DNA from: a virus
Lineage: Duplodnaviria; Caudoviricetes
Virus record (IMG/VR): IMGVR_UViG_3300020214_000017
Span: 1 to 54,570 of that record
Length of the DNA: 54,570 bases
Strand: one strand, 5' to 3'
Part shown: positions 3,276-49,437 of the stretch, piece by piece
Layout: each line of letters begins with the position of its first letter
Numbering within the stretch: the stretch's first letter is position 1
Notes under the pieces: model-generated
Databases searched by the model: none
Seen by the model: the letters and a program-made list of their open reading frames with translations, nothing else
What the model was told of the DNA's origin: nothing
Made by a program: the position numbers and the translations under genes

Positions 3276-3490
3276 CGCTTTCCACCACCGTAGGGCGAAT
3301 TGACGTATCAGCAGCATTCCCAATATTAACTTACGAGCAGGTGCCACCGACGCCGCGCTCCGTCGTCGATGGACACCTCCCGTGCCCATACATGCAACCA
3401 ACCAAAGAAACATGTATCGGACATCTTTTGACCCATATGCCAGCAATGCTAGCATGAGTCCCGTTCAGTAAGTCTGCGCCCATTAGATAA

Positions 3491-3724
3491 TCACCCTCCA
3501 TCTTCACCCTCACCGTAAGTCAGCGTCGCCTCGGCTTTGAACGAGTCAAGGTTTATGTCGTAGTAATCCACAAGAAAGTTGCGCGCCAGGGTCTTGGCTT
3601 CTCGCTTACTATTGGCACGAATACTCGCCATGATTGCAGCGAAATCACCGGTAAAGACAACATCCCATGTGGGCAAGTCTTCTCTGTCCCTGTTGATGTC
3701 ATATTTCCATACAGGTAATTTCAT
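3491..3724 (-). CDS. Hypothetical protein
   Basis: ORF coupled (ATGA) to the VWA gene. Confidence 0.55.
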   Translation of the reverse strand: MKLPVWKYDINRDREDLPTWDVVFTGDFAAIMASIRANSKREAKTLARNFLVDYYDINLDSFKAEATLTYGEGEDGG

Positions 3725-25000: not shown

Positions 25001-25010
25001 CAGGGGGGGG

Positions 25011-25039
25011 TTGTCTAGTACCATTAGTACCGCTAAAGT
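25011..25039 (+). promoter_or_regulatory. Cassette promoter repeat
   Basis: TTGTCT-17-TAAAGT-7-ATG. Confidence 0.8.
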
Positions 25040-25046
25040 AGAAGGT

Positions 25047-25331
25047 ATGGAAAAAACTACATATCGCCATAAAGGGGCGTTGGCTGGTGCGCAAGTCGTG
25101 TATTCGCCAACCACCGAATATGGTGTCAAAACAGAATGGGCAGTTCAACTGTTCTTTCAAAGCCCAACGGGAGACATGAGCGATTTTATTAGTCGTACAA
25201 TACCATGTCTATCCGAAGAGCAAGCAAAGCAAATAGTGGAATATTGGGAGACTCTAGTAGTTCCCTATGCCACGATTGAAAACTTGGACACAATGGCACC
25301 TACCGAATGTTGGTCTACCGCATGGAACTAA
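25047..25331 (+). CDS. Hypothetical protein
   Basis: Leaderless first gene. Confidence 0.65.
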   Translation: MEKTTYRHKGALAGAQVVYSPTTEYGVKTEWAVQLFFQSPTGDMSDFISRTIPCLSEEQAKQIVEYWETLVVPYATIENLDTMAPTECWSTAWN

Positions 25332-27955: not shown

Positions 27956-28094
27956 TTTTTCTTCTTCTTCTTTTCTCTCTAATTTCTAGCACATCCAGGA
28001 AGTCATCATCTGCTTCAATCAGGTCTGCTTTTTCCTGGTCGCTGAAACTATTCATGAATTGTTGGACTATTGCTGAAACGGATTTTTCTCTCAT
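27909..28094 (-). CDS. Hypothetical protein
   Basis: ATGA overlap with the giant ORF. Confidence 0.55.
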   Translation of the reverse strand: MREKSVSAIVQQFMNSFSDQEKADLIEADDDFLDVLEIREKRRRRKNVQNSKKQPNNPSMG

Positions 28095-31000
28095 TTAAGT
28101 TTCCCCAATTCATCGGCAAATTCTTTGCCAAGTTCGGGGTATTTTTTGGCAAGTTGATTTACCGTCTCTATCATTTTAGCAAACTTCTTTTTTGCCCTGT
28201 TCTTCTTTTCTTTTGCTTCTTTTTCGGCAAGAGCCATTTGTTCTGGCGTTTCGTCGCCGATGAATGCGGGGCCCCTGCCGAGAAGTTCCAGAAGAACATT
28301 GGCTAGATATTGGAATTCTTGACGTCTATTCACAGCCTGAATCTCTGGTGATAAACCTGATGGTTTGTCGTCGGGCATTCCGTTCTCCCTTATCCATCCG
28401 AAGACCCGAGCGGGAAGGGGAATTGTCGGGTCGAGCAATTCGTTGGTTCGGATGACGGCTTCGGATGTTGCATGAAACGCGAATTGCAATGCTTCAGGGT
28501 CGACGCCCGCTTCCTCGGCAAGGCGCCTGGTTTCGTCAGTTACCTCATATTCGTCAAATTTGATAAAAAAATGTTCGTTAATTTCTTTTTTGATTTGTGT
28601 TTTTTCTGCATCGTTAAGATTCGGGTCGTTGTCGATTCGCTCGAAGACAGAATCTTTAATTTGCTGTCTGTCGCTGATTGTCAAGCCGAGATAACGACGG
28701 TCGCCCCCGATGGCAACTTTGACGAACGCAACGTTTAATATTTGTTCGGGTGTCAATTTGTGACCAAATTTTTCCTGGATTGTAAATCTGTCGAATCGTT
28801 CCTGCCCTGCCTGCATTTGTGCAAAAACGGGCCAGAAAGCGGGGCCGTAAAGCGCGAACGCCCAGAAATTGGCAGTAAATTCTCCATGTCTTGTGAACCC
28901 TTGTCCGAGGAACGAATGTCCTGTCTCGTGGAGCCCGAGTTCCTCGATTGTGGAATCCGTGATTTGCGGTAGGTTCAAACTTCGCATGTTTTTCATCAAA
29001 AAACCTTCGAGTGCGGTTTGTATTACCGAACCATGCAGGCCGGGGTTGTTGTAGGTGCCGTTGCGGAAAGGACCGCCAGGGTTTTGTTGACGCAATAAAG
29101 CGAACATGTCCTTGATTTCCGAATCCGTGATACCTCGGCTTCGGAGCAGGTGGACATATCGTTGCCCCAATCTTTCTGTGAGGTCGTTCAATATTCTGAA
29201 TTTTTCAACACTTTGTTCGAAGAGTTGCTTGACATGGCGTCCGGCGGGCGACGGGGCGAACGTCATGCTGCCGACAATTTCCTGGACTGCCGCGTATTCG
29301 TCTCTGAGGGTTTTGAGGTCTTTGCTTTCGTAATCTGAGCCGATTATTTCATTCATGACACCAAAAATTACGTCATTGGTTCGTGCATCCGATGATTCCA
29401 TTCTCGACAACAAAGTCAAAAGGCTTATTGGCTCTCCGTAGCGGCTGGGGAAACGCGCCTCAATTTCTTTCAGGCGCTGCGGGTCAATCACTCCAATTGT
29501 GGCGACAACGGTTTTATCGTCACCCAGGGTGAAAGTGATTGGTTTGACACCGATGTCCCGTTTATCTCCCCCGCCCCCCTCGATGGCGCCTGGCTTCCTG
29601 AGAACATGATGAAACGCACCGGCGCCCGGGTATTGGTCGGTAAAATTGTCCACCGGGGTACCAAATGCTCGATTAAGCCGGGCTCTTTCGGTGTAGAAAG
29701 CCGCAGCAATATTAACTATTTTTTCGTAGGTCGGGCTACCCATGACCCGAAGCATCGCCACGTCGAGTTCGTCGCCAAGAATGTCGGCAACTTCCGTATC
29801 CAGCGGCGCCAAAATCTTTTTGACACTGTGCCCTTCAATCTTGATGATTGCCATATTTTCACGCGCCAAAGCCGTCGCCTGTTGTACAAGTGCCGCAAGA
29901 AGCGGGTCACTGAAATCAAAATCGCGTCCCTCAAGATTTTCGAATTTATCGACTAGTTTGAACATTCTGCCGTATTTGCCCGTGGGCATCAGGTCAGCGA
30001 TTTCAATGTCGTATCCGAGACTTCGCATTCGGTCGATAAGCCGTGCACCGAATTGGTTTTCTAGATTAACAAGTGGAGATTCAGGGTCCAAACCACGCAT
30101 CGTTGTTTTTTGTGAAAAATTGGGGCGCATGACATCGGTTGGTTGTGTAATCGTTGACGACCTGATACCCCGTACAAATTTTTCGTTAGCCAAGTCGGGT
30201 CGGTATTTTTCCAGCAATCGCATAGCCGCTTCTTCTGCGGCAATTCTTTCGCCTTCATATTTGGTTGACCTAGACCGACTCATCGCGGCACGAACTTTGC
30301 GCCAAGTCGGAGTTGGTACTTCACGTGGCGCGGTTGAAAAAGTGGTCGGAGTAGATTCGATTTGGTAATCTAGGTAATCAGCATTGATGCCCAACACATC
30401 GAGTGGGTCGTTATCAAGTTTTAAATCTAGTTTTTCTCGCCATTTTGCCCGTTCGCCAGGAGGAACGTCTCGGAATATCTCATCTAGGCGCACTCTCACG
30501 TTTTTGGGGTCAGCGGTGCCCCCAAAAAATGCATTCTGTAGGGCATTAATTTCCGTTCGTATAGCATCCATTTCCATTCGCATAGCATCAATGGGCCGTT
30601 TTTTATCGCTAAACATCATGTTGAATATCAGAAGCGAAATATCTTCTACTCGGATTTTTACGTCGCTATCGATAAAGTTGGCTAATTCAATGCTTTCTTC
30701 GCCTTCCAATGTCTTACGAACCTCATATGCAATGTGGAAATCACTTAAGAGTTCTCTGATGGATGTCTGGCGTTGGTAAAGCCTCTTTAAATTTATGTTA
30801 TGAAGCCTTGTTTCTTGTTCAAGTTCATCCGCCAAACGTTCTAATCTTTCAATGTATCGAGGCGGGATAACGGTCTGCCAAGTCTTTTGTTCACGCAATA
30901 TCTCAATGGCCTGCCTCGTCGCCTCGTGGTCAATGGCTTCTTCAAGTGCATTGTTTGAAGAGTTAATCAGGTGAACCACCTTGTCGGCGAGGAGGTTTAA

Positions 31001-34000
31001 CTCTTCTTGAATTTGTCTACGACCTACTACGTCTACTGGTTCGTCAGGGCCCTTGGCCAAGTCAATAGCATCCCATTTTTCTTGCGCCCTAAGAAGAGCA
31101 TCAAAATCTTTTTTAAGAGCGTCTATATGGGATTGAAACATTTCGGGCGTTGCAGCCATAAAATCCAGCCATGACTGTCCGGCTTTTCGCGCCTTAAGAC
31201 GGTTTTCTGTCGTTCTGGGGGCAAATTGCCCAGATGAAAAACCCCTATCTCGGTTCAAATCAACATTGAAGTCTTGGCGAACCTGATTGATGTAAGAAAA
31301 AGACTGCATTGCTCGTGGGGGCATTTCGATGGCGTCATCAGGCAGTAGACGTGCGTCATCTCCGAGATACCATGTTTCTCTTTGCCCTATTGATAATTGA
31401 CCATTGATACGTTCAAGAATTTCTTCTGTTTCCTGGGTGAAAGACTTTTGGTGAGGGATTACCCTGAAGTTCGGGTCATCTATCATCTGCGCCGCTTGTG
31501 CAAATGAAACCTTTTCATCGAGAATTTGGATTACCCTATTGTTCAAAATTTCATACGTTCTGTTGCCATGTTTAATGGCATCAGTTCCCAGCAATATTGG
31601 AATTAACGTAGTCCTGAGGACAGTAGTTGAATTTATGAATTCTGCTAATAGGTCGTTGCGAAGTTTGACAAGTGAAGGAGGGTTGTTTTGTAATCGCCTT
31701 TGATTCTCGATTGCAAAAAATGCTTTAGCCAATCTGAATGCGTGTAATTGAATGTCGCTTGCGGAGCCGGTGGTTATGGATGTTTTGGGGACGATTAGTT
31801 TAAGTGTCCCAGTGTCAACTTCGACACCATACGTTTTAATCATGTCGTTTATCAAACTGTCATAATTTCCGTCAATCCATGCACCCAATGGGAAATTTAT
31901 GTTTGGGAATAGTTTCAGAACAATTTGTTCCACCTGGTTGTTAGTCAACACTCTCGCTTTCGGGTCAAGTAAAATAATCAACCCATTTTTGTTTTGTGCT
32001 GGGTCCTGGTCAGGGCGTTGTTTGTCGACCATTTTGTCGAGGTATCGGAATGGTTCACTGGTTACCTTTGTCAGGTGTTTTTTCACGCCTTCAAGAGCCA
32101 CGGGAACTTCGTCATTCGACCAATTGTCTCCATTGTTGCTTATTCCGTAAAGAACTTTTTCGCCAGCATTTATGCGCTCTTCTAATTCTGTCCGTGTGAT
32201 AAGTCGAGGGGGTGAGTTGAATGCTGCGCTTTCTCGTGCGTATTTTTCGCGTTCTGCGTGTTTGAATAGGTTGACTTCTTCATGGTCGCCAGCCCTTATG
32301 ATGGCTGCCAGCCGCCCTGCCTGTTGTTGATTAAGTCCTTCTGGCGAGTCGAGCGGTCCAATAAACAGGTCAAATTCTTCCATTTTGTTATCGGAAAGCG
32401 ACCCAATAAGTTCTGCCCGTTGGCGGTTTTCATGTGTTGGCCCAAAATTACTGAGTTCGGGGTCGTCGGGTTGGTCGGGTATTGCAAAGGCTGGGAGCCA
32501 ATCGTTATCTTGTCTGTCGACGATTATGGAAAGATTTGACAGATTCAAATTCGAATCATCGAATAGTTGTTTCCAAGCGAATTTTTGTTCTCCGGTAAGT
32601 TCGCGAGGCTCGATGATGTTTGCAAGAATTGTTATGAGGCCCGTGTCGTTATTGTTTGTCGATTCATGCATGCGCGCAAGTGCAAGCCATCCGATGAGTC
32701 GCTGACGGAAATCGTTGTTGGTTTTTAACCCGTAATCTATATCAGCGGCGATAGAGGGCGCAGCCGAAATGCCCTCTTCGTCCTCGTCTATGTTCGGGTC
32801 TTCGAAGAGAGCAGCACGAAGTATGTTTCGTATCTCGACAATTAATTTGTGCCGAAATTCCTTGAAACCGCCCGTGTCATTATCGGCCAAGTTATATTGA
32901 TAATTCATGCGAGGCCATACAATTACCCCGTCCAAAACTGCACTGGGGATGAATATTTCTGTTCCTGCGTGTTGTCTCCACCACAGCGCGGCGTGTTGTT
33001 GTAAAAGTGTTCCTATTCCTCTACCTTTTCCTGTTGCCCCCTCTCCGGCTTCTCTAATCATGAAATTACTGTGTTTAATTTTGATATTGCCTTGTTCGTT
33101 AAGGTAAATCTCACGTTCAAAATATTGGTCTGAACGGTGTTTTTGTCCGGAAGTTGTGAATGATGCTTGTATTTTGAATGAAATAGGGCTGTTATTGGAG
33201 TAGTTCCAAAGTCTCTGACCGCTTTCGTAGCCCTGCAAAACCACGTAAGCACCCTTACTGCCAATTGTTGACTTAAGTGGTTCTACTTCTATTGCCGTAT
33301 CATCGATTGCGATAACTCCGCCTTTGCCAGATTTCGAAGAACCATCAAGCAAATATGCCCGTTGAACTGATTTGAGGGCATCCAGGGTTGTTTGTAAGAC
33401 TTGGCGCAATTCTTTGGTTGCTTCTGTTTGGGGATTGATGATTTCGGGGATGCTAATAAACCCTTCTCGTATTTCTTCGTCAGTCAAATAGTGCCCTGTT
33501 TGTCTTTTGCCAAATTCACCCGTGGCCAATAGGCGCTCAAGGTCGGCCCTAGACATAGTGCCGTCGAATCCAATCCGACTTAGCAAATACGAAAATTTGT
33601 ATAATGGCGAGTATTCGTCAAAGGAGATTTCTTCTTTGTCGTCGCCTATTCGAGAATTTTTTATGAGTAAGTCACGTAATGTGTCAATTGCTCGTCTGGT
33701 GGTTTCAGTATCAAGTGTTCGCCATTTTCGGATTGAATCGACATCATCTTTCCATGGAGTTGTTCTTCCGTATTTATTTTTAATTGCCTTTATGGATTGA
33801 GTCAATCGGCGTTGAACTGATGTTTGGATGTGGTCGGAAACTATTTTGCGTGCCCGTTCGATAAATGGGGCCATGCGTTGTTGGTATTCTTCGCGATTCG
33901 TGGCGACTCGTTCATAGTCCAAAAAGTCCTTCATTTCAGGCGGTGTGATTTCCGTTGTAGATGAAGCCAAGCCACGATTTTGTAAGACGTCTGTGTGGTC

Positions 34001-37000
34001 TTTGCGTTTCTGCATTTCAATGTTCATTTTTTCTTGCTCTTCAGGTGTATAACGAGCAAGTGATGCACCCATTTTGCGCATTTTCTTTGGGACATCAGAG
34101 GACTTGTCAACTGGTCGCATTGCGTCATGTCTTGGGTCGAAAACTTCTTTGTGGGAAAGAGTTACGATGACATTGGTGCCGTTATCTTGTATTTTTGTGA
34201 CTTCGAAATTACCCTGAGTCAAAAATTGACCGTTACCAACATCGATTGCTTTTGCGCCTTTCTCCACACGAATAATTACGGTATTGTCTTTGTGGGGCAT
34301 CGTCGAAGAAACTGCGGTTATCGGCATTGGTATGCTGTCGCCAATATTGAATCCTTCCAAAAAGGTTTCCCTATCAATATTGATGATTCGGAAGAGTTCG
34401 CGTTTGTTTGGTTCTGACGCCTGTACCGCCAGATGAATATCTGCTGCGTCCTTTAATGCTGCTTCAATCGGGGAGCGTTTTGAGATTGGAAGTTTGGCAA
34501 TTTTGCCCGTGACCAAACTGCGCAACATGTCTTTGTTACCTTCGGTTGTGGTGTCATAGATGGGCATATCGTCAACGAATAAACCAAATTGAATTGAGGA
34601 GATGGCGCGTACCATATCTCCGTGATGAGGTCGATTTCTATTGATATAACGTTGCCCTGCTGATTCGCCGAATGATTGTCGCGTTCTTTGGTCCAAGAAC
34701 GAGGCAAATGGCACGCGGTTGTCATAGAAATGATGGTCGCCGATGTGCAATAAACGCGCCCGTGAGCCATAATCAGTTAAGAGTGTTGGGGTTGGATTTG
34801 CGTAGAGTCGTTCGTCTGTATCAATATTTAGGTTGGTGCGAAGTGTCAAACGGCTACGTTCGTTTGGGTCAAAACGTAAATTATCATCTGATGTCGATGA
34901 ATTAAAGCCAGGGCGATGACCGTCTGCTGTTCTTTCAAGTTGCGGTGCCACTATTTTTATATTTGACAAAATTCTGTCAGAAATGTCGTCCACTTCATCT
35001 GAAAACGTCCCCCTAGAGGTTTTCCTGCGTCTCCACATTGATGTGACTGTTTGTGGCTCCGTATTAAGACCCAAAATACGCGCAACAAGTTTTACCGCCG
35101 CATTATTTACTAAAAATGGGTGCTTTTGTCCAAGGCGGGTTGTTACGGAGGCAAAAATCTCAGCGAATCTTTCGGTTGTGTCTGTTTGCCCGTAAGGGGT
35201 TACTACATATGGTTCGGATGAGTTGATGCTGTCTTTGCTGATATCTTTATGACGTCTGCGGTTTGGTTCGTTGCGTCGTCGCTGAGATAATGTGTCGGTC
35301 GCGTGCATTTCTTGTAATTGACCTTCAAGTTCTGTAATAGCGGCTTGAAGTTCGCTATCGGTCATGTTGTCGACGTCAAACAGCCTTTGACCTGTCGGGA
35401 TATTGTCGAAGTTGGGATAGTTACCCCACAGTGCGGGGTCTGCGAACATCGGTTGAGTTCTTCTGTTTTTAAGCATTCTTCTTTGCCCGTTTACGACGTC
35501 ATAACCGTTGTGTCTTCGACCGAAACCCAGGTCTTCACGGCGCACTAATGCATCACGAAAACGTTTATAATGTGGTACTCCACCAGGATAAGTTGTTCCT
35601 ACAGGAGGTTTAAAAAATATGTTTGAAATGCCCCAGTTTTTGGGGTCTCGTTTAAATTGTTCCCATGCCAGCAAGGCATAATTGCGTCGAAGCATATAGT
35701 CCAAATAATGTCCATATTCGTGAATCACGACCGCGGCCTCGCCGATGGTTTCTGATATTGCGTTCGAATTTTCAATATTGAATATTTCTCGTGATGCTTC
35801 GGATGGGTTAAGCATGTATAACAAAAGTTGCCCGTATTGTAAAACCATTTCATTGGTGTGAGGCTGAAAGTAACCACCAAGGGGTGCGTTCATAGGGAAA
35901 TGCCCTGATGCGCCGTTTTCATAGTCGGAGAAAACTTGAGTTCGACCCCGGTTAAGGGGTTCTGTAAAATGCTTTCCTCGCATGGCGCGGCGCGACCATT
36001 CAACACGCAGCAATCGTTCATGTTTTCGTAGTAATTTTTTCCCTATTTCTATTCGTTTGGCAAGCAATGATTTTGATATATGTTGTGGGGATGCGGTGAG
36101 CATTTCAAGGGTTAGGTCTTTATCTTGTCCGACAAAACTGAAAACGCGATGCGGTAGAACTATGACAGGCAATCCATATTCGCGAACAGCGTGAAGAAAT
36201 TCTGGATTTTCTTTTAGGGTTCGTCTAACAAACGCCCGCAGCATGACGCGGTCTTGTCTGACTTCTGATGGAACAGCGTTAGCAATGCCATTCATAAAAA
36301 AATCGTTCATTTCTATGCGATTTGGAAATATTGTTCCTATAAATCCAAAGAGAGACCCTGATTGCTGTGCAAAATCAAGTCTATTTTTTATTTGGTCGTT
36401 AGTAATAACGTTTTGGACACGAATTAAGCGTGGTGGTCCAATAGTCGAATCTTGCGCGTTTTGCACGAAATGCCATTGCCTAGCAACCTCTCGTAGCGCG
36501 ACGGACATCGGGTCACGTGGGTATGAGGCCTTTTGTGAAGCAAAATTAAAATAGAGTTCTAGGATGCTCTGTACGAGGTCAAGGGCTGGGGATTTGTTGG
36601 GTGCCATTATTTCTTGCATATTCATGAAACTTATGGATTGTCCCCCTACTATTAACCGAGCAAGTATGTATTCCATCATGCCTATGGCATCAGGAACAGG
36701 TTTTTCCAAGCCATCGGATGGGTCGATATGCCTCTTAGAAAAAAGTCCATGGTAAAGAAAGCCATTGTTGGCTGCCTGCATTCTTTTGGCTTCGAGGATT
36801 AAATCTTTTATTATTTGCGGAGTGTTGGGGGTTGCCAAAAGTGTGTCAAAAAATTCTTCCTGCCACGCCACAATGTCGTGATGAACATAGGACATCAGGT
36901 TGCCAAAGTCTTCCTGAGCACCAAACAGTTTATTCACCCGTGAGGTGAATAAAGAATAGTTGTTTTCGATGTCTTTATTGAATGCACCAGTTCCGAATTC

Positions 37001-37624
37001 ATAGTCGTACATGGATTCCAATGCGTTAATTTTCATTTGGGGCAAAAGTCGGTATGCTTTGATTGCCTGTTGGTGTAGGTTGAGTGCGTGTTGATAATCT
37101 TCTTCTGTTTTGTATGATTCCCTTGGGACCGTAATGCGTTCATTCAATTCATCTATTTCTTTTGTCGTTAGGGGAACGAATACCCTCGCCAATTCGTCTT
37201 CTGTCGCCTGGCGGCGCCAATCTCTGTCAAGAGGGTCGGGTTTTTTGGCAGGGCGGTCTATGGCGGGCGGTTCTGTGGATGACGCGAGGCCGCGCTGGCG
37301 CCGTGTTTCCTTGGCGACTTGTGTTGGCGTGGTGTCGTCTTTTTCTATGGGCGTTTTGGGGGTGGGTTTACTCAGGTTCATTTGACCCCTGAGAACAACA
37401 GGGCGCATAAATATGGTGCCGTCCTGGACAAAGCCATCGTTGTCGCCATCGAAAGCATTGGGGTCAAATGGCTCTTGGGCGAGTGCTCTCCCTATACCCC
37501 TTCCCACTCCGGCCCCCCCTGCTGCGAGTTTGAGTGTTCGACCGAGGCGGCGGCTGAGACGATTGCCGTCTTTTACATTAATCACAAATTCGATTAATTC
37601 ATTGTTGGGATTCAAATTATCCAC
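28091..37624 (-). CDS. Giant multi-domain (polyvalent) protein: two zincin HExxH, ART-like, GNAT-like, DUF2786-like
   Basis: 3177-aa uninterrupted ORF; DGDNDGFVQDGT, HEYGH..ERFAE, GKGRGIG..DG..VWPR, RKVRAAMSRSRST..GER.AAEEAAMRLLEKY, HETGH. Confidence 0.8.
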   Translation of the reverse strand: MDNLNPNNELIEFVINVKDGNRLSRRLGRTLKLAAGGAGVGRGIGRALAQEPFDPNAFDGDNDGFVQDGTIFMRPVVLRGQMNLSKPTPKTPIEKDDTTPTQVAKETRRQRGLASSTEPPAIDRPAKKPDPLDRDWRRQATEDELARVFVPLTTKEIDELNERITVPRESYKTEEDYQHALNLHQQAIKAYRLLPQMKINALESMYDYEFGTGAFNKDIENNYSLFTSRVNKLFGAQEDFGNLMSYVHHDIVAWQEEFFDTLLATPNTPQIIKDLILEAKRMQAANNGFLYHGLFSKRHIDPSDGLEKPVPDAIGMMEYILARLIVGGQSISFMNMQEIMAPNKSPALDLVQSILELYFNFASQKASYPRDPMSVALREVARQWHFVQNAQDSTIGPPRLIRVQNVITNDQIKNRLDFAQQSGSLFGFIGTIFPNRIEMNDFFMNGIANAVPSEVRQDRVMLRAFVRRTLKENPEFLHAVREYGLPVIVLPHRVFSFVGQDKDLTLEMLTASPQHISKSLLAKRIEIGKKLLRKHERLLRVEWSRRAMRGKHFTEPLNRGRTQVFSDYENGASGHFPMNAPLGGYFQPHTNEMVLQYGQLLLYMLNPSEASREIFNIENSNAISETIGEAAVVIHEYGHYLDYMLRRNYALLAWEQFKRDPKNWGISNIFFKPPVGTTYPGGVPHYKRFRDALVRREDLGFGRRHNGYDVVNGQRRMLKNRRTQPMFADPALWGNYPNFDNIPTGQRLFDVDNMTDSELQAAITELEGQLQEMHATDTLSQRRRNEPNRRRHKDISKDSINSSEPYVVTPYGQTDTTERFAEIFASVTTRLGQKHPFLVNNAAVKLVARILGLNTEPQTVTSMWRRRKTSRGTFSDEVDDISDRILSNIKIVAPQLERTADGHRPGFNSSTSDDNLRFDPNERSRLTLRTNLNIDTDERLYANPTPTLLTDYGSRARLLHIGDHHFYDNRVPFASFLDQRTRQSFGESAGQRYINRNRPHHGDMVRAISSIQFGLFVDDMPIYDTTTEGNKDMLRSLVTGKIAKLPISKRSPIEAALKDAADIHLAVQASEPNKRELFRIINIDRETFLEGFNIGDSIPMPITAVSSTMPHKDNTVIIRVEKGAKAIDVGNGQFLTQGNFEVTKIQDNGTNVIVTLSHKEVFDPRHDAMRPVDKSSDVPKKMRKMGASLARYTPEEQEKMNIEMQKRKDHTDVLQNRGLASSTTEITPPEMKDFLDYERVATNREEYQQRMAPFIERARKIVSDHIQTSVQRRLTQSIKAIKNKYGRTTPWKDDVDSIRKWRTLDTETTRRAIDTLRDLLIKNSRIGDDKEEISFDEYSPLYKFSYLLSRIGFDGTMSRADLERLLATGEFGKRQTGHYLTDEEIREGFISIPEIINPQTEATKELRQVLQTTLDALKSVQRAYLLDGSSKSGKGGVIAIDDTAIEVEPLKSTIGSKGAYVVLQGYESGQRLWNYSNNSPISFKIQASFTTSGQKHRSDQYFEREIYLNEQGNIKIKHSNFMIREAGEGATGKGRGIGTLLQQHAALWWRQHAGTEIFIPSAVLDGVIVWPRMNYQYNLADNDTGGFKEFRHKLIVEIRNILRAALFEDPNIDEDEEGISAAPSIAADIDYGLKTNNDFRQRLIGWLALARMHESTNNNDTGLITILANIIEPRELTGEQKFAWKQLFDDSNLNLSNLSIIVDRQDNDWLPAFAIPDQPDDPELSNFGPTHENRQRAELIGSLSDNKMEEFDLFIGPLDSPEGLNQQQAGRLAAIIRAGDHEEVNLFKHAEREKYARESAAFNSPPRLITRTELEERINAGEKVLYGISNNGDNWSNDEVPVALEGVKKHLTKVTSEPFRYLDKMVDKQRPDQDPAQNKNGLIILLDPKARVLTNNQVEQIVLKLFPNINFPLGAWIDGNYDSLINDMIKTYGVEVDTGTLKLIVPKTSITTGSASDIQLHAFRLAKAFFAIENQRRLQNNPPSLVKLRNDLLAEFINSTTVLRTTLIPILLGTDAIKHGNRTYEILNNRVIQILDEKVSFAQAAQMIDDPNFRVIPHQKSFTQETEEILERINGQLSIGQRETWYLGDDARLLPDDAIEMPPRAMQSFSYINQVRQDFNVDLNRDRGFSSGQFAPRTTENRLKARKAGQSWLDFMAATPEMFQSHIDALKKDFDALLRAQEKWDAIDLAKGPDEPVDVVGRRQIQEELNLLADKVVHLINSSNNALEEAIDHEATRQAIEILREQKTWQTVIPPRYIERLERLADELEQETRLHNINLKRLYQRQTSIRELLSDFHIAYEVRKTLEGEESIELANFIDSDVKIRVEDISLLIFNMMFSDKKRPIDAMRMEMDAIRTEINALQNAFFGGTADPKNVRVRLDEIFRDVPPGERAKWREKLDLKLDNDPLDVLGINADYLDYQIESTPTTFSTAPREVPTPTWRKVRAAMSRSRSTKYEGERIAAEEAAMRLLEKYRPDLANEKFVRGIRSSTITQPTDVMRPNFSQKTTMRGLDPESPLVNLENQFGARLIDRMRSLGYDIEIADLMPTGKYGRMFKLVDKFENLEGRDFDFSDPLLAALVQQATALARENMAIIKIEGHSVKKILAPLDTEVADILGDELDVAMLRVMGSPTYEKIVNIAAAFYTERARLNRAFGTPVDNFTDQYPGAGAFHHVLRKPGAIEGGGGDKRDIGVKPITFTLGDDKTVVATIGVIDPQRLKEIEARFPSRYGEPISLLTLLSRMESSDARTNDVIFGVMNEIIGSDYESKDLKTLRDEYAAVQEIVGSMTFAPSPAGRHVKQLFEQSVEKFRILNDLTERLGQRYVHLLRSRGITDSEIKDMFALLRQQNPGGPFRNGTYNNPGLHGSVIQTALEGFLMKNMRSLNLPQITDSTIEELGLHETGHSFLGQGFTRHGEFTANFWAFALYGPAFWPVFAQMQAGQERFDRFTIQEKFGHKLTPEQILNVAFVKVAIGGDRRYLGLTISDRQQIKDSVFERIDNDPNLNDAEKTQIKKEINEHFFIKFDEYEVTDETRRLAEEAGVDPEALQFAFHATSEAVIRTNELLDPTIPLPARVFGWIRENGMPDDKPSGLSPEIQAVNRRQEFQYLANVLLELLGRGPAFIGDETPEQMALAEKEAKEKKNRAKKKFAKMIETVNQLAKKYPELGKEFADELGKLK

Positions 37625-39190: not shown

Positions 39191-39778
39191 TTATCTACCC
39201 CCTGAATCCACAATGGCGTTGATGATTTTTTTGAGACGAATAATTTCTTTTTTCAATCGGTCCACCTCGTCGGACGGGTCGTCTGCCGCCTTCTTGCACG
39301 GCCACAGTTTGTCGGCCGAATTCCGCGGGAAAAAATACTTCAAGGTCTGATGTCTTTTTATCCTGTAGACGCCCTCGATTTGTCCGTTGTGAATCGCGCG
39401 CCTGATGGTATCCGTCGACACGTCATATTCCGTAGCCGCTTGGATGATTGAGATGTCGGTCGTGTCCCTTGGTTCGAGAAGGACCTCGTAGTCGACCTCG
39501 ACTCTCAGCATAAGCGCCCCTTCCTTGTGCTCGTCGTGCACGGTTCCATCAGCATACAGAGAACCGTATTGGGGCATTACCCCCAATTTGTCTTTTTTTG
39601 AAAGATTGCATCTCGCGCACGATTTGACCAGATTGAACGGGTCTTTGTTACTCCCGGCGTACCTGGACCGGGGTATGACGTGGTCGATGTGCCAATTATT
39701 GCCGTCCGGGTCGTTGCGGCCCGAGCCCGTCCTCAGGCAGTAGGCGCAAACCTCGACCGACTTCAGCCCGCCCTTCAA
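39191..39778 (-). CDS. HNH endonuclease with excisionase-type HTH
   Basis: CAYC..HIDHVIPRS..NLVKSCARCNLSK; QAATEYDVSTDTIRRAIHNG. Confidence 0.85.
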   Translation of the reverse strand: MKGGLKSVEVCAYCLRTGSGRNDPDGNNWHIDHVIPRSRYAGSNKDPFNLVKSCARCNLSKKDKLGVMPQYGSLYADGTVHDEHKEGALMLRVEVDYEVLLEPRDTTDISIIQAATEYDVSTDTIRRAIHNGQIEGVYRIKRHQTLKYFFPRNSADKLWPCKKAADDPSDEVDRLKKEIIRLKKIINAIVDSGGR

Positions 39779-40440: not shown

Positions 40441-41013
40441 CTAAACTCGTTTCCACCACCGCAAACGTTCCTCTAATAAGGGCCAGTCTAGTATCTTCAA
40501 TTGGTTCCTATGTACCAACCTGGTGTCGTCCGGTGAATAATGGGCGGGTTCGCCGATGGCCCAGCCCTTGTCGTAGTCGATTTGGCCCCATATCTCCACC
40601 TGCCTTAATTCGGGCATGATTGCTTTGGCCACAAAAAGAATCAGCCCCTTACCTAAATCCCGTTTGCGAACAGCCGCCGTTTCTCCGGTCCTGACCCGCC
40701 GCACCTCTATATTTTCGCCCACGTCGCTTATCTTGTTTTTGTAGACGTTGTGCAGGTCCGCTGCCCAAACGTGGCCGGACCAATAGTTGTTGGTTGCCTT
40801 CGCCACAGCCAGTTCGCAGACAGCGGCGGCGACTTGCGCCGTCCGGTCGTCTTCCATCAGTTCTTTTTTGTAATACGGAGCGTCTTTTTTGCGCCAATTT
40901 TCGATGTATCGGCGGGTGCCAACATGGGAGGCCCACTCGTATTCGAACGGCTCTAGTTGAACATTAAACGAGTCTACGTGGTCATTTTTTGCTAGATGTT
41001 TTGCGTACGTCAT
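40441..41013 (-). CDS. Phage protein, possible PD-(D/E)xK-like fold
   Basis: CELAVAK...DVG.NIEVRR. Confidence 0.6.
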   Translation of the reverse strand: MTYAKHLAKNDHVDSFNVQLEPFEYEWASHVGTRRYIENWRKKDAPYYKKELMEDDRTAQVAAAVCELAVAKATNNYWSGHVWAADLHNVYKNKISDVGENIEVRRVRTGETAAVRKRDLGKGLILFVAKAIMPELRQVEIWGQIDYDKGWAIGEPAHYSPDDTRLVHRNQLKILDWPLLEERLRWWKRV

Positions 41014-41321
41014 TACCTCAGTCTAGTGTTGCACTTCAAACAAAACTCGGACCAGGGGTAATACCGACGCTGGTTAACCGGGTGACTGCATTCAAGTAAT
41101 TCTTTGGCTCGAGAATTTAAAGTATCCCGAATAAACTGAGATAGATTTATCCCTTCTTTTTCGGCGGCAAGTTTCCACTTACTGCGCTCTGTATCCGTAG
41201 TTCTTATCAAAACCTGTTTATCGGCAGGGCCATCGTCGTCTTTGGAAATTGTCTTAACCGTCGGATTTAGGTTCTCCGTCACCTTGTCTATCGCCGACTT
41301 CAAGTTGTCTTGTTCGTCCAT
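41013..41321 (-). CDS. RHH DNA-binding protein with C-terminal zinc ribbon
   Basis: VLIRTT..ERSKWKLAAEKEGINLSQFIRDTLN; CSH...CLKC. Confidence 0.6.
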   Translation of the reverse strand: MDEQDNLKSAIDKVTENLNPTVKTISKDDDGPADKQVLIRTTDTERSKWKLAAEKEGINLSQFIRDTLNSRAKELLECSHPVNQRRYYPWSEFCLKCNTRLR

Positions 41322-41919
41322 CATCAACCACCTCAGCATCGATAATAGTTGAACGACCGAGCATCTGGTTGACAGTTTCCTCCGGCAAAACCCCAGAAGT
41401 AGCCATTATTTCAAGCAATTTTTTGGCTTCAGACTCCGGGTCGAATTTATAAATTTCTTTCTTGATACCCGCCTGTCCAGCAAGCGTAGCCCTGATTGGC
41501 GACGCCACGGCACCGCTGGATATCTCGGCTTGAATATTGACCCTAGTTTGGTCCATACCAAGCAGTTTTGAGCGTCTATCGCTTATTGCCAATACCTGTT
41601 GCACTGCCTTCATATCAGGCTCGATTTGAACCTCGGTGCCGTCGTCCATAGTCACCTTTCTATGTTGCGTAAGTGGCCATAGCGCCGCCTGTAATGAATC
41701 CAAACGCTCCAATTCCATTCGTAAAACATCTAAATAAACCAGCCCGTCTTCTTTGTTGAGTTTTTCCAACTGTCGATTAACCGCGTTGGAAACAACCTTC
41801 GTGGAAACACCAAACCTTTTTGCAATTTCGCTTATCGCCACGCCGGCCTGACGCATTTTAAAAATACGAGAGTCACGCTCCGCTAAAAATTCTTTGGTCA
41901 TTGGTGTGTTGTTGCTCAT
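41254..41919 (-). CDS. HTH protein, terminase small subunit-like
   Basis: MRQAG..ISEIAKRFGVS; ELERLD.LQ..LW; VL.I..RRSKLLG.D. Confidence 0.5.
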   Translation of the reverse strand: MSNNTPMTKEFLAERDSRIFKMRQAGVAISEIAKRFGVSTKVVSNAVNRQLEKLNKEDGLVYLDVLRMELERLDSLQAALWPLTQHRKVTMDDGTEVQIEPDMKAVQQVLAISDRRSKLLGMDQTRVNIQAEISSGAVASPIRATLAGQAGIKKEIYKFDPESEAKKLLEIMATSGVLPEETVNQMLGRSTIIDAEVVDDGRTRQLEVGDRQGDGEPKSDG

Positions 41920-41923
41920 ATTT

Positions 41924-43639
41924 TTATGTGTGTATTATTGGCGCCCAGTCCACAACCTCAAATGGAAAACGTTTTCCTCTTCTAATTCTAGTTGGCCATT
42001 GACGTTCCTCGCGGGCACCCCTGAAATGTCTAATGTCATAATGAAAAGCCATACCCGTTGCATCGGGCTGTAGCGAAATACCAAACTCCGGCCAACGTGA
42101 CCACACAGCGGAACCAAAAGGTCGAAGTTCTCGGGTTGTCATCGAATTGCCCAATGGTGCGTGGTGTTCTAGCCACATTGCACACTGAAAAGTATCTCGC
42201 ACTACATCCAAATATCTTGCGACCTCGATTGCAACGGCTTCGCTTGTTCGGCCACCCGGGTCGATAAAAGATTTGTAAAGCGGACCCATAATCAAAATTG
42301 TGGGCTGGATACGTTCCATCATCTCCTCAAGGACGGCCCTATCCTCGACTCGCAATAAATTTAGGCCCTGTGGCTTTATTAAAAGATGTGCCTGTGGATT
42401 TTTGTTTCCAGAGACAGAAAATGCCGCATTGTAAATCGAACGCGACGTTCGTCTTATGATTCTTTCGGGATTTTCCAAATCAACAGACAGAGTTATCTGT
42501 GGTTTAATTTTTTGAAAAGAAAATGGATGAAGGCCCATGCTGACACAAATAGCCACCTGTCTGGAAAGCATTGTTTTCCCCACACCCTCAGCGGCAACAA
42601 CAATTACTCGCTCAGTTCTTTCAAGAAGGCCGGGTATCAGCCAATCGAACGCATCATCCTGACTTTCGTTGACAAAATCACGCCAAGACACAAGGCGACC
42701 AGAATCAACCAATTTTGTACTTGAATTACGGGCAATGAGCAGTTGTGTTCTCGACAATTTTTGGCTTTCGGACATGTCGTTACGCTCGAGAATTTCATAA
42801 ATTTCGCTTATCGTGCGCGTTTCCGTCGATTCAATTGTTGGGGTGCTTTTCTCCGGCTGATTTTCGATAGTTCCCAAGTCGACCTGGTTAAGTTCTTCAA
42901 TTGAGCCACCGTTTTGTATATGGTCGGTGATGTCTTTGCCTTTGGCACAAATCCATACCTGGGCATCACAACCGGCATCGGTCAATTCTTCGTAAACATT
43001 TTTCGCATGCCTCAAACCCGCGTCATCATTATCCGCAATTATTTCGACGACCGCGCCAGCAAGCGACTCGGTATGAATAGGCAGCCACGTGCCGGCACCA
43101 TTTGGCATGGTGGTTGCACAAATGCCCATTTTGGTCAGGGTGTCTACGTCTTTCTCGCCTTCAACCACCCAAATGGGGGCACCTTCTTTTTTTGCCTGCA
43201 AAACTTTCGGCAGATTATAAAGCACCCGGGGGGTGTCGCCCAGTCTGTATTCCCAGCCACCATTTTGATTGGGTTTTCTTTGCCTGAATTCTTTTTTATT
43301 AGTCTCATAATCGATATATCGAAGTTTTTCGAAAAGCAATGTGCCCTTTTCGTCAAAATACTGATATTTCGCTACTAAGTTAAGTTTTTTCTGCGTTTTA
43401 GGTGGATAAAGGTCAGACATTTGAATTCCCATTGCTTCGCATGCCTGTTTTGTGTCACATCTTCCGGCATGGCAGTAAACGACGACTTTACCACCTTCGC
43501 CCTGAGATACCGAAAACGATGGATTGTGGTCGTCGTTTCGACAGGGACATTTTGCTTGGAATCCACCCGAAACCCTTACAACGCCCTGCAGTCGGTTTAA
43601 AACGTTTTGTAATTGGGGTGAAATCGATATTTCAGCCAT
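41924..43639 (-). CDS. Primase-helicase (Zn finger, TOPRIM, RecA-like AAA_25)
   Basis: CPC..D.NPS..CHAG.C; VVEGEKD, ADNDDAG, KDITD; AAEGVGKT. Confidence 0.9.
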   Translation of the reverse strand: MAEISISPQLQNVLNRLQGVVRVSGGFQAKCPCRNDDHNPSFSVSQGEGGKVVVYCHAGRCDTKQACEAMGIQMSDLYPPKTQKKLNLVAKYQYFDEKGTLLFEKLRYIDYETNKKEFRQRKPNQNGGWEYRLGDTPRVLYNLPKVLQAKKEGAPIWVVEGEKDVDTLTKMGICATTMPNGAGTWLPIHTESLAGAVVEIIADNDDAGLRHAKNVYEELTDAGCDAQVWICAKGKDITDHIQNGGSIEELNQVDLGTIENQPEKSTPTIESTETRTISEIYEILERNDMSESQKLSRTQLLIARNSSTKLVDSGRLVSWRDFVNESQDDAFDWLIPGLLERTERVIVVAAEGVGKTMLSRQVAICVSMGLHPFSFQKIKPQITLSVDLENPERIIRRTSRSIYNAAFSVSGNKNPQAHLLIKPQGLNLLRVEDRAVLEEMMERIQPTILIMGPLYKSFIDPGGRTSEAVAIEVARYLDVVRDTFQCAMWLEHHAPLGNSMTTRELRPFGSAVWSRWPEFGISLQPDATGMAFHYDIRHFRGAREERQWPTRIRRGKRFPFEVVDWAPIIHT

Positions 43640-44252
43640 TTTTAATTAGGCGTTTGGCAACCGCTTTACTTTTTTGATAATACTCGTCTTGGTGCGGCGC
43701 CATGCTCGGCGTCATAAAATTAAGTCTGGTTTTGCGAGCAAACCGATTCATTTGCACTTCGCGCAAGCACTCTATATTCAATTTGTAACGCAAATAGACA
43801 CGTTCGATTTCGGTGGTTCCACCCCAAATTCCGAAAGGTTCAGCCTTCAGGGCGTATTCCAAACAGGTTTCTTGAATTTTACATCCCATGCAGATGTCAA
43901 TGGCCTCACGAATAGTGCTCTCATGTTTTATTTTTGCCAAACGCGAATAGTTTTCAAGTTCTGGAAAAAATTGCTTTTTGGGAAAGGACTTGCATGCCGC
44001 ATCGGAAAAATCAGGAAAATCAACGTCGATTATTTTGGTTTCAAAATCGACCGGGCTTTTTGGGATGCGACTAGGTTTTTGGGTATTAAGGAGTTGTTTA
44101 TCTTTTAAATGTCGCCGAACCCGTTCCTGGCCAACCATTAGTATTGAGGCGATACTGTGAACTGAGTGATTTTCTCGATGTAGTTTTTCGATTAGAAATT
44201 TTTGGTCTTCATCGAAGATTTTGCGAAGTCCCTTTTTGCTATTCATAAACAC
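43632..44252 (-). CDS. whiB: WhiB-family regulator with N-terminal HTH extension
   Basis: AAC...FFP...ICMGC.I..TCLEYAL..EPFGIWGGTTE.ER. Confidence 0.85.
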   Translation of the reverse strand: MFMNSKKGLRKIFDEDQKFLIEKLHRENHSVHSIASILMVGQERVRRHLKDKQLLNTQKPSRIPKSPVDFETKIIDVDFPDFSDAACKSFPKKQFFPELENYSRLAKIKHESTIREAIDICMGCKIQETCLEYALKAEPFGIWGGTTEIERVYLRYKLNIECLREVQMNRFARKTRLNFMTPSMAPHQDEYYQKSKAVAKRLIKNG

Positions 44253-48597: not shown

Positions 48598-49437
48598 ATG
48601 AAAAATAAAACCTCAATATCACCAGAAATAACGGCTTCAGTAGAACTTATTACTCCAGCCGTAGCAAAAAAAATGCTCGATGGGAACATGAACAATCGCA
48701 AGTTGCGCAAGTTCCGTGTCGCTCAATATGCCGATGCCATGAGGCGAGGTATGTGGGACATCCAAAACGACGCAATCACCATCTCCCAGTCAGGCAAATT
48801 GTTGAACGGTCAACACCGTTTGACAGCCATTGTCGAAGCAGACCAAGCATGCCAATGCCTCGTTTTGCGCGGAGTAGATGAAAGCGCTTACGCAGTTATT
48901 GACTCCGGCCTTGCCCGTACGGTCAATGATTCGTTGCACGCGGCTGGGCTGGGTCTCAATTCCACCCACATGTCGCCGATGGCCAAAACCTTGATTGCCA
49001 TGGATGCTGGTTTGAGCATTTATGACACCAACGCTCTTGCCTTGGTACAACGCCGAGATGTTGTTGAGTATGTAGAAGCCAACAACGAAATGTTGACTTG
49101 GGCTTTGCATCTTGCGCGAAGAGTAGACCTCGCAGTTGGCGGAATTCGTCATGCATGGGGCGTATTCGCAATGCTCGCGGCTCAAAAACATAGCAGAGAA
49201 AAAGTTGAAGAATTCGTGACCCTGGTTATCGATGGCGTCGGCCTCAAGCCAGGCGACTCACCGCTTGCTTTGCGGAATTGGATTTCCCGTCAAAGGGGTT
49301 CTTGGCACCGCGCCGCTAGCAAAAACAACATCGCCATTTATATCACATCATTCAACAGGTGGCTAACGGGTGAAAAGGTTTCGGTTGTACGCCCATCCGG
49401 CGAAACCTGGGATACTTTCCCCCAAATTGTTGACTAA
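48598..49437 (+). CDS. ParB/Srx-like N-terminal domain protein
   Basis: ITP..AK.ML..N.NNR...YA.AM..G.W...LLNGQHRL.AIV...IDSG..R; TTGTTT-17-TAGAGT upstream. Confidence 0.75.
   Translation: MKNKTSISPEITASVELITPAVAKKMLDGNMNNRKLRKFRVAQYADAMRRGMWDIQNDAITISQSGKLLNGQHRLTAIVEADQACQCLVLRGVDESAYAVIDSGLARTVNDSLHAAGLGLNSTHMSPMAKTLIAMDAGLSIYDTNALALVQRRDVVEYVEANNEMLTWALHLARRVDLAVGGIRHAWGVFAMLAAQKHSREKVEEFVTLVIDGVGLKPGDSPLALRNWISRQRGSWHRAASKNNIAIYITSFNRWLTGEKVSVVRPSGETWDTFPQIVD

Follow-up and report, generated by a model that had tools for sequence, protein, structure and literature searches.

The polyvalent proteins of phages and conjugative elements described by Iyer et al. (2017) combine 2-15 effector domains with zincin-like metallopeptidase (MPTase) hubs, and ADP-ribosyltransferase (ART), GNAT, zeta-kinase and helix-turn-helix (HTH) domains are frequent among them (PMC5512222). 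In phage T4, gp21 removes a propeptide that targets Alt and the internal proteins to the capsid, as summarised in PMC7411985, and the prohead protease of SPN3US cuts after A-X-E (positions P3-P2-P1) with Ser preferred at P1', according to passages of PMC10052503. Here we describe a protein of 3177 amino acids (aa), the giant hereafter, encoded in the tailed-phage record IMGVR_UViG_3300020214_000017 from IMG/VR, whose whole length of 54,570 nucleotides (nt; CheckV completeness 37%) we call the window. The giant was originally predicted to be a polyprotein loaded into the capsid and processed at a short motif, G-[LFI]-x-S, recurring between its domains. We put the probability at roughly 0.6 that it is a packaged polyvalent protein cut in trans at this motif, most likely by a prohead protease of the Peptidase_S78 (S78) family; cleavage, packaging and ejection are what we infer from the sequences.

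Several effector-type modules, namely two zincin-like blocks, an ART-like fold and further, unassigned blocks, would on this proposal be held in one chain, and the motif, G-[LIF]-x-S-[ST]-T in its fuller form, would provide recognition sites in the flexible linkers between them, at which a phage protease acts in trans. The candidate enzyme is the S78 prohead protease of related phages, where it is fused to, and followed by, motif-bearing giants. The cut would fall after the invariant Ser (L-x-S↓S/T), by analogy with prohead proteases that take a small or hydrophobic P3, any P2 and a fixed P1. An N-terminal Arg-rich/DGDGDG module would bring the protein into the procapsid, and cutting would yield about six pieces of 12, 91, 35, 103, 42 and 77 kDa, which would remain inside the head and might accompany the DNA into the host.

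So read, the giant resembles T4 IPI-III and Alt, which are likewise effectors, an ART among them: a propeptide takes them into the procapsid, the head protease trims them at a short motif, and their genes likewise lie away from the head genes, as outlined in PMC7411985. The T4 proteins, however, are small, have a single domain and receive one N-terminal cut, whereas at least five internal cuts are proposed here in a 3177-aa chain; Ser, not Glu, holds the fixed position of the motif, and the putative targeting module spans ~70 aa and can be internal. With phiKZ and SPN3US (A-X-E or S/A/G-X-E) the giant would share the use of one P3-x-P1 motif across head and ejection proteins and the protease propeptide, with Ser preferred at P1'; the processing described in those passages of PMC10052503 is, in contrast, mostly removal of an N-terminal propeptide (13 of 14 sites), with no dicing between domains. 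Their protease is of the T4 gp21 type, unlike an S78 enzyme with an extension of more than 1000 aa, and their hosts are Proteobacteria.

Polyvalent proteins are also giant multi-effector phage proteins, for which processing and delivery with the DNA were predicted, but zincins are named there as the processors, whereas a defined site and an S78 link are proposed here; the terms 'linker' and 'DGDG' do not occur in the main text of PMC5512222. Polyvalent proteins are associated with virion-packaging genes; the gene of the giant lies in a replication module, yet its motif and leader are common to head-module proteins. Very large virion-carried proteins with zincin-like domains are further represented by the N4 virion RNA polymerase and by P1 DarB/DdrB, of which DdrB is processed before packaging (passages of PMC5512222). 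Unlike the giant as we read it, the N4 enzyme enters the particle uncut; neither it nor the P1 proteins are known to have a repeated site, and no sequence similarity between them and the giant was found. By analogy only, RNA-virus polyproteins present one open reading frame (ORF), a short protease site repeated between the parts, and co-evolution of site and protease; our case differs in concerning a tailed dsDNA phage and a protease that is a capsid-maturation enzyme on another polypeptide. Prohead-protease substrates and polyvalent proteins are thus already known; the novelty lies in a defined site between domains that recurs across the genome, also in a polyprotein fused to a protease, and in the module that accompanies it. 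A limited literature search found no description of either the linker motif or the module.

The motif in the giant and its homologs

The predicted reading frame and all five motifs are present where they were placed: RGLASST at aa 111, RPGFNSST at aa 904, RGLASST at aa 1217, RGFSSGQ at aa 2127 and RGIRSST at aa 2485. The parts of the giant, in window coordinates, are as follows.

28091-37624 (-): giant ORF, 3177 aa, GTG start; multi-domain 'polyvalent' phage protein with ten homologs.
37349-37561 (-): leader module, aa 22-92, in which FDPNAFDGDNDGFVQDGTxxxRP (DxDxDG-type loop) comes after an Arg-rich stretch; from the alignment and a hidden Markov model (HMM).
37274-37291 (-): site 1, GLASST, aa 112-117; from the sequence; coil with a predicted local distance difference test (pLDDT) score below 50.
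34910-37273 (-): segment A, aa 118-905, zincin-like block 1 with HEYGH at aa 635-639 (nt 35708-35722); invariant HExxH.
34892-34909 (-): site 2, GFNSST, aa 906-911; from the sequence and the homologs.
33974-34891 (-): segment B, aa 912-1217, ART-like fold, the most conserved block; densest run of invariant columns and Foldseek.
33956-33973 (-): site 3, GLASST, aa 1218-1223; conserved; coil after a helix.
31244-33955 (-): segment C, aa 1224-2127, unassigned, labelled 'GNAT-like' in the original prediction; conserved residues.
31226-31243 (-): site 4, GFSSGQ, aa 2128-2133, a divergent copy; from the homologs; coil.
30170-31225 (-): segment D, aa 2134-2485, long helices and a weak DUF2786-like end; AlphaFold2 secondary structure and PF10979.
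30152-30169 (-): site 5, GIRSST, aa 2486-2491; conserved; start of a coil.
28094-30151 (-): segment E, aa 2492-3177, zincin-like block 2 with HETGH at aa 2899-2903 (nt 28916-28930) and a helical tail; invariant HExxH.
28343-28360 (-): degenerate sixth site, SGLSPE, aa 3089; homologs keep GLRS there, after zincin 2.

Chance does not explain these motifs. Four copies of G[LFI]xSS stand in the giant against 0.11 expected from its composition, and three of RG[LFI]xSS against 0.009. The pattern G[LIF]xS[ST]T matches four times in the window (259 ORFs of at least 60 aa), each time inside the giant, whereas 200 shuffles averaged 0.2 matches and never exceeded 2; for the giant alone, the average over 300 shuffles was 0.00, with 1 match at most. 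The loose G-[LFI]-x-S returns 7 matches against 2.1 expected, including two extra ones (aa 293 and 1388) that are not linker-like, and site 4 (GFSSGQ) deviates from the consensus. The patterns were set after the sites had been seen, and the independent tests are the homologs and a related genome, G001. Codon usage at the sites varies synonymously, which indicates that it is the peptide that is selected; a repeat at the DNA level was rejected as the source of the motif on the same ground.

Ten homologs of the giant, 3116-4303 aa long and 27-57% identical, come from metagenomes. Lack of conservation in homologs would have told against the original prediction, but the motifs are kept in all ten at matching inter-domain places, beside indel-rich stretches, with 1-8 strict copies each. 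At site 1, GGLR[AS]TT is aligned in two homologs (P0004 and P0005) and the closest homolog (P0003) has a gap. Site 2 reads PG[LMF]xSST in the five closest sequences; among the six distant ones it is of the [GS][IL]RS type in four (P0007, P0008, P0010, P0011), offset in P0009 and absent from P0012. Conservation is tighter residue by residue at sites 3 (G1218 invariant, L1219 and S1221 at least 90% conserved) and 5 (S2489 invariant, R2488 at least 90% conserved), and the homologs read GL[GRS]S[SR]T or SLRS[GS]G at site 4, with FLASGR in P0012.

Three lineage dialects, all with the core L-x-S, can be told apart. G-L-x-S-[ST]-T is used by the giant (P0001; 4 copies against 0.00 in shuffled sequence), P0003-P0006 and G001; [GS]-L-R-S-[ST]-G, or xLRSSG, by P0007-P0011 (5 against 0.00 in P0009); and L-[ASP]-S-G-R, or LxSGR, by P0012 (8 against 0.37), where a PF03496 ART domain (3426-3565) lies between sites 3263 and 3600. 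When 33 sites from the giant and five G001 proteins are pooled, G, L, S and T are kept at 29-33 of them, the S column being set by the search pattern. Arg precedes the motif (position -1) at 11 of the 33, and the Arg within the motif is swapped for A, S, N, Q, K or M in this clade.

Structural context was taken from two AlphaFold2 models made with the 11-sequence alignment, one of aa 61-1250 (m1d433185787e, mean pLDDT 54.4) and one of aa 2100-3177 (m16f62faf71b3, mean pLDDT 70.8). Burial inside folded domains, which would have told against the prediction, was not found: all five sites fall in coil or low-confidence stretches. Site 1 is coil with pLDDT below 50 (index 52 of the first model), its flanks being in the 1st percentile of hydrophobicity. 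Site 2 is also coil, but the whole surrounding region has low confidence, so the model is uninformative there. Site 3 opens a coil straight after helix 1194-1217. In the second model site 4 is coil with pLDDT below 50 (index 27-38), and site 5 opens a 39-residue coil (387-425) after a helix, with pLDDT below 50 from index 390; the best-modelled region is segment E, with pLDDT of about 70-90. Flanks of the pooled sites are hydrophilic (median percentile 0.17; 20 of 33 sites under the 25th hydrophobicity percentile); the others are less so, site 5 of the giant, for example, standing at the 54th percentile. The same inter-domain places in homologs, the synonymous codons and the coil or low-confidence setting together show, as far as sequences and models reach, that the motif is functional.

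The motif and the leader module beyond the giant

The related record G001 (136,198 bp, 91% complete), all 632 ORFs of which were scanned, encodes a giant homolog of 3355 aa, also amid replication genes. The motif occurs 22 times in G001 against 0.87 expected (at most 4 in 200 shuffles), and 20 of the 22 matches fall in five otherwise unrelated proteins: a fusion of the S78 prohead protease, proteins of 3039, 2206 and 877 aa, and the giant homolog. Among the other phage proteins, a scan of which the original prediction called for, four head-module proteins of G001 bear the motif beside the giant homolog; in the window, strict matches are confined to the giant. Gene order in the G001 head module, from portal to major capsid protein (MCP), is the following.

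Position 1: portal, first of the row.
Position 2: S78 fusion, 1225 aa, PF04586 at 21-165 and an extension of ~1,050 aa; motif-bearing.
Position 3: 451-aa protein, very acidic; no motif.
Position 4: 3039-aa protein with two HExxH, an RNase_T exonuclease and 4-6 sites; motif-bearing.
Position 5: ORFs of 153, 219 and 688 aa; no motif.
Position 6: 2206-aa protein; motif-bearing.
Position 7: ORF of 136 aa; no motif.
Position 8: 877-aa protein with two DUF3721 stretches, sigma-70 region 4 and a Zeta-toxin-like kinase; motif-bearing.
Position 9: MCP, end of the row.

Motif-bearing proteins add up to ~7,300 aa between portal and MCP (G001 27306-58023; loci L015 and L016); the acidic 451-aa protein may be a scaffold. 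Wherever Pfam recognises domains in motif proteins, the sites flank them and never lie inside: RNase_T (2371-2561) of the 3039-aa protein stands between sites 2320 and 2616, and in the 877-aa protein Sigma70_r4 (414-456) comes just before site 466 and Zeta_toxin (649-795) just after site 625. Homologs of the 877-aa protein on other contigs have LRS-type motifs at matching places. Paralogy was rejected as the cause of the common motif, as BLASTP of the giant against the 3039-aa protein found no homology beyond HExxH and the motif.

Two members of the 877-aa family have an unusual layout. One (L024 9992-13048) contains an extra block of ~130 aa with NTLRS[ES]G on each side, as though a module had come in with its punctuation already attached. 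The other (L026 3309-5931) is encoded by two overlapping ORFs (411 + 466 aa), which reflect either a frameshift or sequencing error or a genuine split.

The S78 fusion identified 309 relatives in IMG/VR, of which the best 80 loci were examined. Its ORF matches at least one of the three dialect patterns in 37 of these 80. At 20 loci both the fusion and a neighbouring ORF matched, and the dominant dialect of the two was the same at 18, tied at one (L028) and different at one (L044, on a single match). At L029, for instance, R-L-A-S-G-R occurs in the fusion and five times in a 2690-aa neighbour; at L031 x-L-R-S-S-G occurs three times in the fusion and five times in the neighbour, and at L050 R-G-L-x-S-S-T two and four times. 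At L102 (4206-13391) and L105 (2156-13264) the S78 protease forms the N-terminus of chains of 3061 and 3702 aa with 10 and 7 [LF]-x-S-G-R sites, respectively. One short motif is thus common to several head proteins and to the protease's own chain, both in G001 and, by dialect, at the 18 of 20 loci. A concerted change of sites in unrelated proteins of one genome is what would be expected from a common trans-acting reader.

The second shared element is the leader. The DGDNDGFVQDGT leader of the giant belongs to a module of ~70 aa in which an Arg-rich stretch precedes [FL]DPxxxDxDGDG[FILM][IV]xDGTxxE[RM]P; its core resembles a DxDxDG calcium-binding loop, and the module matched no Pfam family. 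An HMM trained on the giants and the 877-aa family finds the module in two G001 proteins outside the training set, at 412-468 of the S78 fusion (E 1e-19) and at 230-296 of the 2206-aa protein (E 7.5e-20), with a motif site within ~60 aa after the module in both. The N-terminal leader of the original prediction has therefore become an HMM-detectable module, present also in the S78 fusion and two other motif-bearing proteins. Its proposed role in capsid targeting is suggested by analogy; loading would fit, since the module is common to the protease, which must itself enter the procapsid, and precedents are the T4 capsid-targeting sequence and the C-terminus of the SPN3US protease (passages of PMC7411985).

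The module ranges far more widely than the motif-bearing families, with matches in 410 representative proteins at E<=1e-3 and in 72 at E<=1e-10; 98 of 144 newly listed module proteins are outside all four G001 families. It is ~25-70 aa long, occurs in 1-5 copies per protein, often between the domains of classical polyvalent proteins (P0014-P0157), and many copies have Asp-Pro just upstream. The motif follows the module in only 15 of 235 cases, compared with 2% at random positions. Eight module proteins were scanned for domains, and clear polyvalent proteins are among them. P0025 joins a portal with GNAT, ART-PolyVal and M90 peptidase domains, modules standing between the domains; P0019, which shares the leader module, matches PF18760 (ART-PolyVal), as does P0025; and P0017 has HipA- and PI3K-like kinases together with the module.

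Candidate readers of the motif

What could read the motif? An S78 protease is suggested by the motif in its own chain, by motif proteins devoid of HExxH, by the MCP junction and by a layout like that of prohead-protease sites. T4 uses L/I-x-E, and herpesviruses V/L-x-A↓S. The MCP junction was placed by the propeptide length of HK97-like capsid proteins; S-L-R-S-E-T occupies the expected end of a delta domain of that length in 4 of 8 related MCPs, and F-L-x-S occurs eight residues past the junction in all 8. These MCPs represent 8 loci, none shown to use LxSGR. Separately, all 8 MCPs keep LQ[GSD]ALR[SA]KM ~10 residues from the N-terminus (L016 10704-10780 and homologs), a second LRS-like element in the presumed propeptide.

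The original prediction left the choice between the prohead protease and the zincins of the giant itself. Comparative data favour the phage protease, and they narrow the zincin option: HExxH is absent from three motif-bearing G001 proteins (the S78 fusion and the 2206-aa and 877-aa proteins), so cutting in cis by zincins cannot be general. In a broader form, the zincin-like blocks of the giants would cut in cis on their own chain and in trans on others, in the head or after injection. Invariance of both HExxH blocks in 11 of 11 sequences implies selection for some activity, the G001 3039-aa protein combines two HExxH with 4-6 sites, and zincin-like MPTases have been proposed to process polyvalent proteins such as P1 DdrB (passages of PMC5512222); zincins as readers would also account for S78 domains that hardly differ while dialects do. 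We nevertheless consider this unlikely, given that up to 10 copies of the motif in the protease fusion's own chain, and another beside the MCP maturation junction, point to the head protease. The zincin blocks, moreover, match no Pfam or NCBIfam peptidase family, their activity is itself presumed, and they could equally act on host proteins.

Cleavage may also be absent altogether. An uncut motif could serve as a short linear docking signal for a co-evolving partner (capsid interior, scaffold, portal or chaperone) and tether long proteins in the procapsid, in the manner of encapsulin cargo peptides: these are short motifs, rich in Gly, Ser and Leu, that bind a shell of HK97 fold. Such a signal, too, would be expected to show genome-wide dialects and a disordered setting, and it would suit the concerted variation of prime-side residues next to a nearly constant S78 domain. 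It is made improbable by the way the sites flank recognisable domains as punctuation, by the L024 insertion with its own motif copy on both sides, by L-R-S or L-x-S where the MCP propeptide should end, and by a P3-x-P1 layout like that of known prohead-protease sites. Lastly, the motif might be modified, for instance by phosphorylation of Ser/Thr or by ADP-ribosylation in an R-x-x-L-x-S-S-T context, as its Ser/Thr-rich make-up, the Arg at -1 in 11 of 33 sites and the kinase-like (Zeta_toxin) and ART-like domains of the same protein set might suggest, or it might be just a favoured flexible linker with no specific reader. Either is very improbable: the Arg inside it is replaced by A, S, N, Q, K or M, a dedicated kinase is not in evidence, and a generic linker would neither retain G, L, S and T at 29-33 of the 33 sites (S being set by the search pattern) nor change its dialect jointly in proteins that share a genome but no ancestry.

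A number of observations weigh against trans cleavage by S78 of a capsid-loaded giant. The gene of the giant lies among replication genes, in G001 ~23 kb from the MCP gene, and the window record, 37% complete, contains neither a capsid or head gene nor an S78 protease (no PF04586 match), so the protease link depends on a relative whose giant is only 36% identical. At 43 of the 80 loci the S78 ORF matches none of the three patterns, and the agreement at 18 of 20 loci includes near-duplicates and shared ancestry, so that roughly three lineages count as independent. The remaining four of the 8 MCPs read E-T-R-S-I-G at the junction, without Leu, and the capsid-maturation site therefore matches loosely. 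The S78 domains are 69-87% identical across lineages of different dialect; such near-constancy means no obvious co-variation of the protease with prime-side residues and makes another reader possible. If S78 does read the motif, it probably sees mainly G/x-L-x-S, and the concerted prime-side change stays unexplained. The HMM finds no leader module in the motif-bearing 3039-aa protein of G001. The model of aa 61-1250 is of low quality (mean pLDDT 54), and a region modelled with low confidence need not be disordered. Finally, the argument is built on sequences and models. The original picture of a capsid-loaded polyprotein cut at the motif is the best-supported reading, the motif being unburied, conserved, present on the S78 fusion and its neighbours, and genome-wide in dialect.

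Domain content, surroundings and significance

At least two unrelated effector-type domains, the two invariant HExxH blocks and the ART-like fold, share one chain in the giant, and homologs add more. The labels of the original prediction survive unevenly: the HExxH blocks are invariant in all 11 sequences, the ART-like fold has moderate Foldseek matches, the DUF2786-like end is weak, and the GNAT-like label has a sub-threshold lead from the ESM Atlas only. In block 1 the invariant residues are H635, E636 and H639, and in block 2 H2899, E2900, H2903, H2913, G2914 and E2915, with HGE 10 residues past HExxH. With the better model (aa 2100-3177) as query, Foldseek found no match at E<=0.001 in either PDB or BFVD; weak BFVD rows named 'large polyvalent protein associated domain' were not counted (TM 0.06-0.10).

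Segment B matches Vis, Certhrax, C3 and Tre1-type ADP-ribosyltransferases in the PDB (Foldseek E 5e-4 to 4e-3, probability 1.00; TMt 0.38-0.48 but root-mean-square deviation 14-21 Å, with a query model of mean pLDDT only 54), which gives moderate support to an ART-like fold. C3/VIP2-type ADP-ribosyltransferases have the triad R / S-T-S / (Q/E)-x-E; segment B contains no (Q/E)-x-E and no Pfam ART match (PF03496/PF18760), and its invariant R1079, T1103 and E1141 are candidate ART residues only. The PF03496 matches in homologs are a separate C-terminal domain and not segment B, and the only stand-alone shorter form of the ART-like block is one partial protein on a 2.4-kb contig. Segment C has conserved residues (Q1543/H1544/W1548/D1565/G1566/W1570/R1572); its Atlas values (aa 1222-2125) of 0.76-0.77 are below the useful threshold, with Acetyltransf_1 on 20% of one cluster. 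In segment D, PF10979 (DUF2786) has E 0.89 in the giant and E 7e-4 at best in 2 of 11 homologs.

The giant as a whole has no significant match in Pfam, PHROGs or NCBIfam; a family-wide profile against PDB sequences returned only two chance coiled-coil matches (E 0.19-0.28). PolyVal/LPD Pfam families (e.g. ART-PolyVal PF18760 and MPTase-PolyVal) gave none at E<=1 in the giant and none at E<=0.01 in the 11 sequences. At the C-terminus of homologs, GLRS follows 'GWQR' and variable cargo comes next (PF03496 ART, HTH/sigma-70 region 4); giant homologs in other phages have sigma-70 region 4 or HTH domains joined at this end.

Genes around the giant ORF are replicative or regulatory (primase/helicase, helicase, single-stranded DNA-binding protein, WhiB-like, sigma-like, HNH endonuclease and ribonucleotide reductase), and in the window and G001 alike the giant sits in this replication module and not in the head module. 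Upstream of it lie two sigma-factor-like/HTH proteins, a WhiB-like regulator and an HNH endonuclease (window 41013-41919 (-), 43632-44252 (-), 39191-39778 (-)). The top cultured matches, to MCP and primase, are Gordonia and Arthrobacter phages at 31-44% identity; together with WhiB they point to an actinobacterial host. The giant itself was unmatched by megablast and tblastn among 50,697 cultured phage records, and a scan of 185,579 prokaryote genomes found no prophage copies. In the Gordonia phages, nearest among cultured ones by MCP (44% identity), the motif is in no annotated gene of the 41-kb structural region, and its 3 matches are all in antisense ORFs.

Two motif-like strings occur elsewhere in the window. 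Right after the helicase gene, the frame at 25008-25331 (+) reads SRGGLSSTIST, where the motif begins 3 nt before a 106-aa ORF reaches its first TTG; it is either a chance occurrence or the sign of an unrecognised start. A 279-aa protein at 48598-49437 (+) (phrog_5931, unknown function) has GLGLNSTH, a near-match.

Polyvalent proteins have since 2017 been seen as multi-effector weapons delivered with the DNA, their loading and cutting being predictions so far. The lineage described here offers three candidates: a site with the core L-x-S, a protease that forms one chain with its substrates, and a module for loading. We would tentatively go further, to a picture which we regard as possible but doubtful, in which actinophages of ~140 kb use a two-part grammar: the Arg-rich/DGDGDG docking module would load cargo and protease, S78 would cut at G-L-x-S, more than 10,000 effector residues per genome would be handled in this way, and DGDGDG would be a general loading or punctuation tag, as found in 410 proteins including portal fusions. 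That would amount to a polyprotein strategy in a tailed dsDNA phage. If the proposed processing is true, effector polyproteins would be matured by an enzyme recruited from head maturation. The site would provide a rule by which mature products may be predicted from thousands of residues of unannotated phage protein, and module and site would form a portable pair for loading and release of cargo in HK97-fold capsids. This would bear on abundant freshwater-type actinophages, whose biology is known only through metagenomes.

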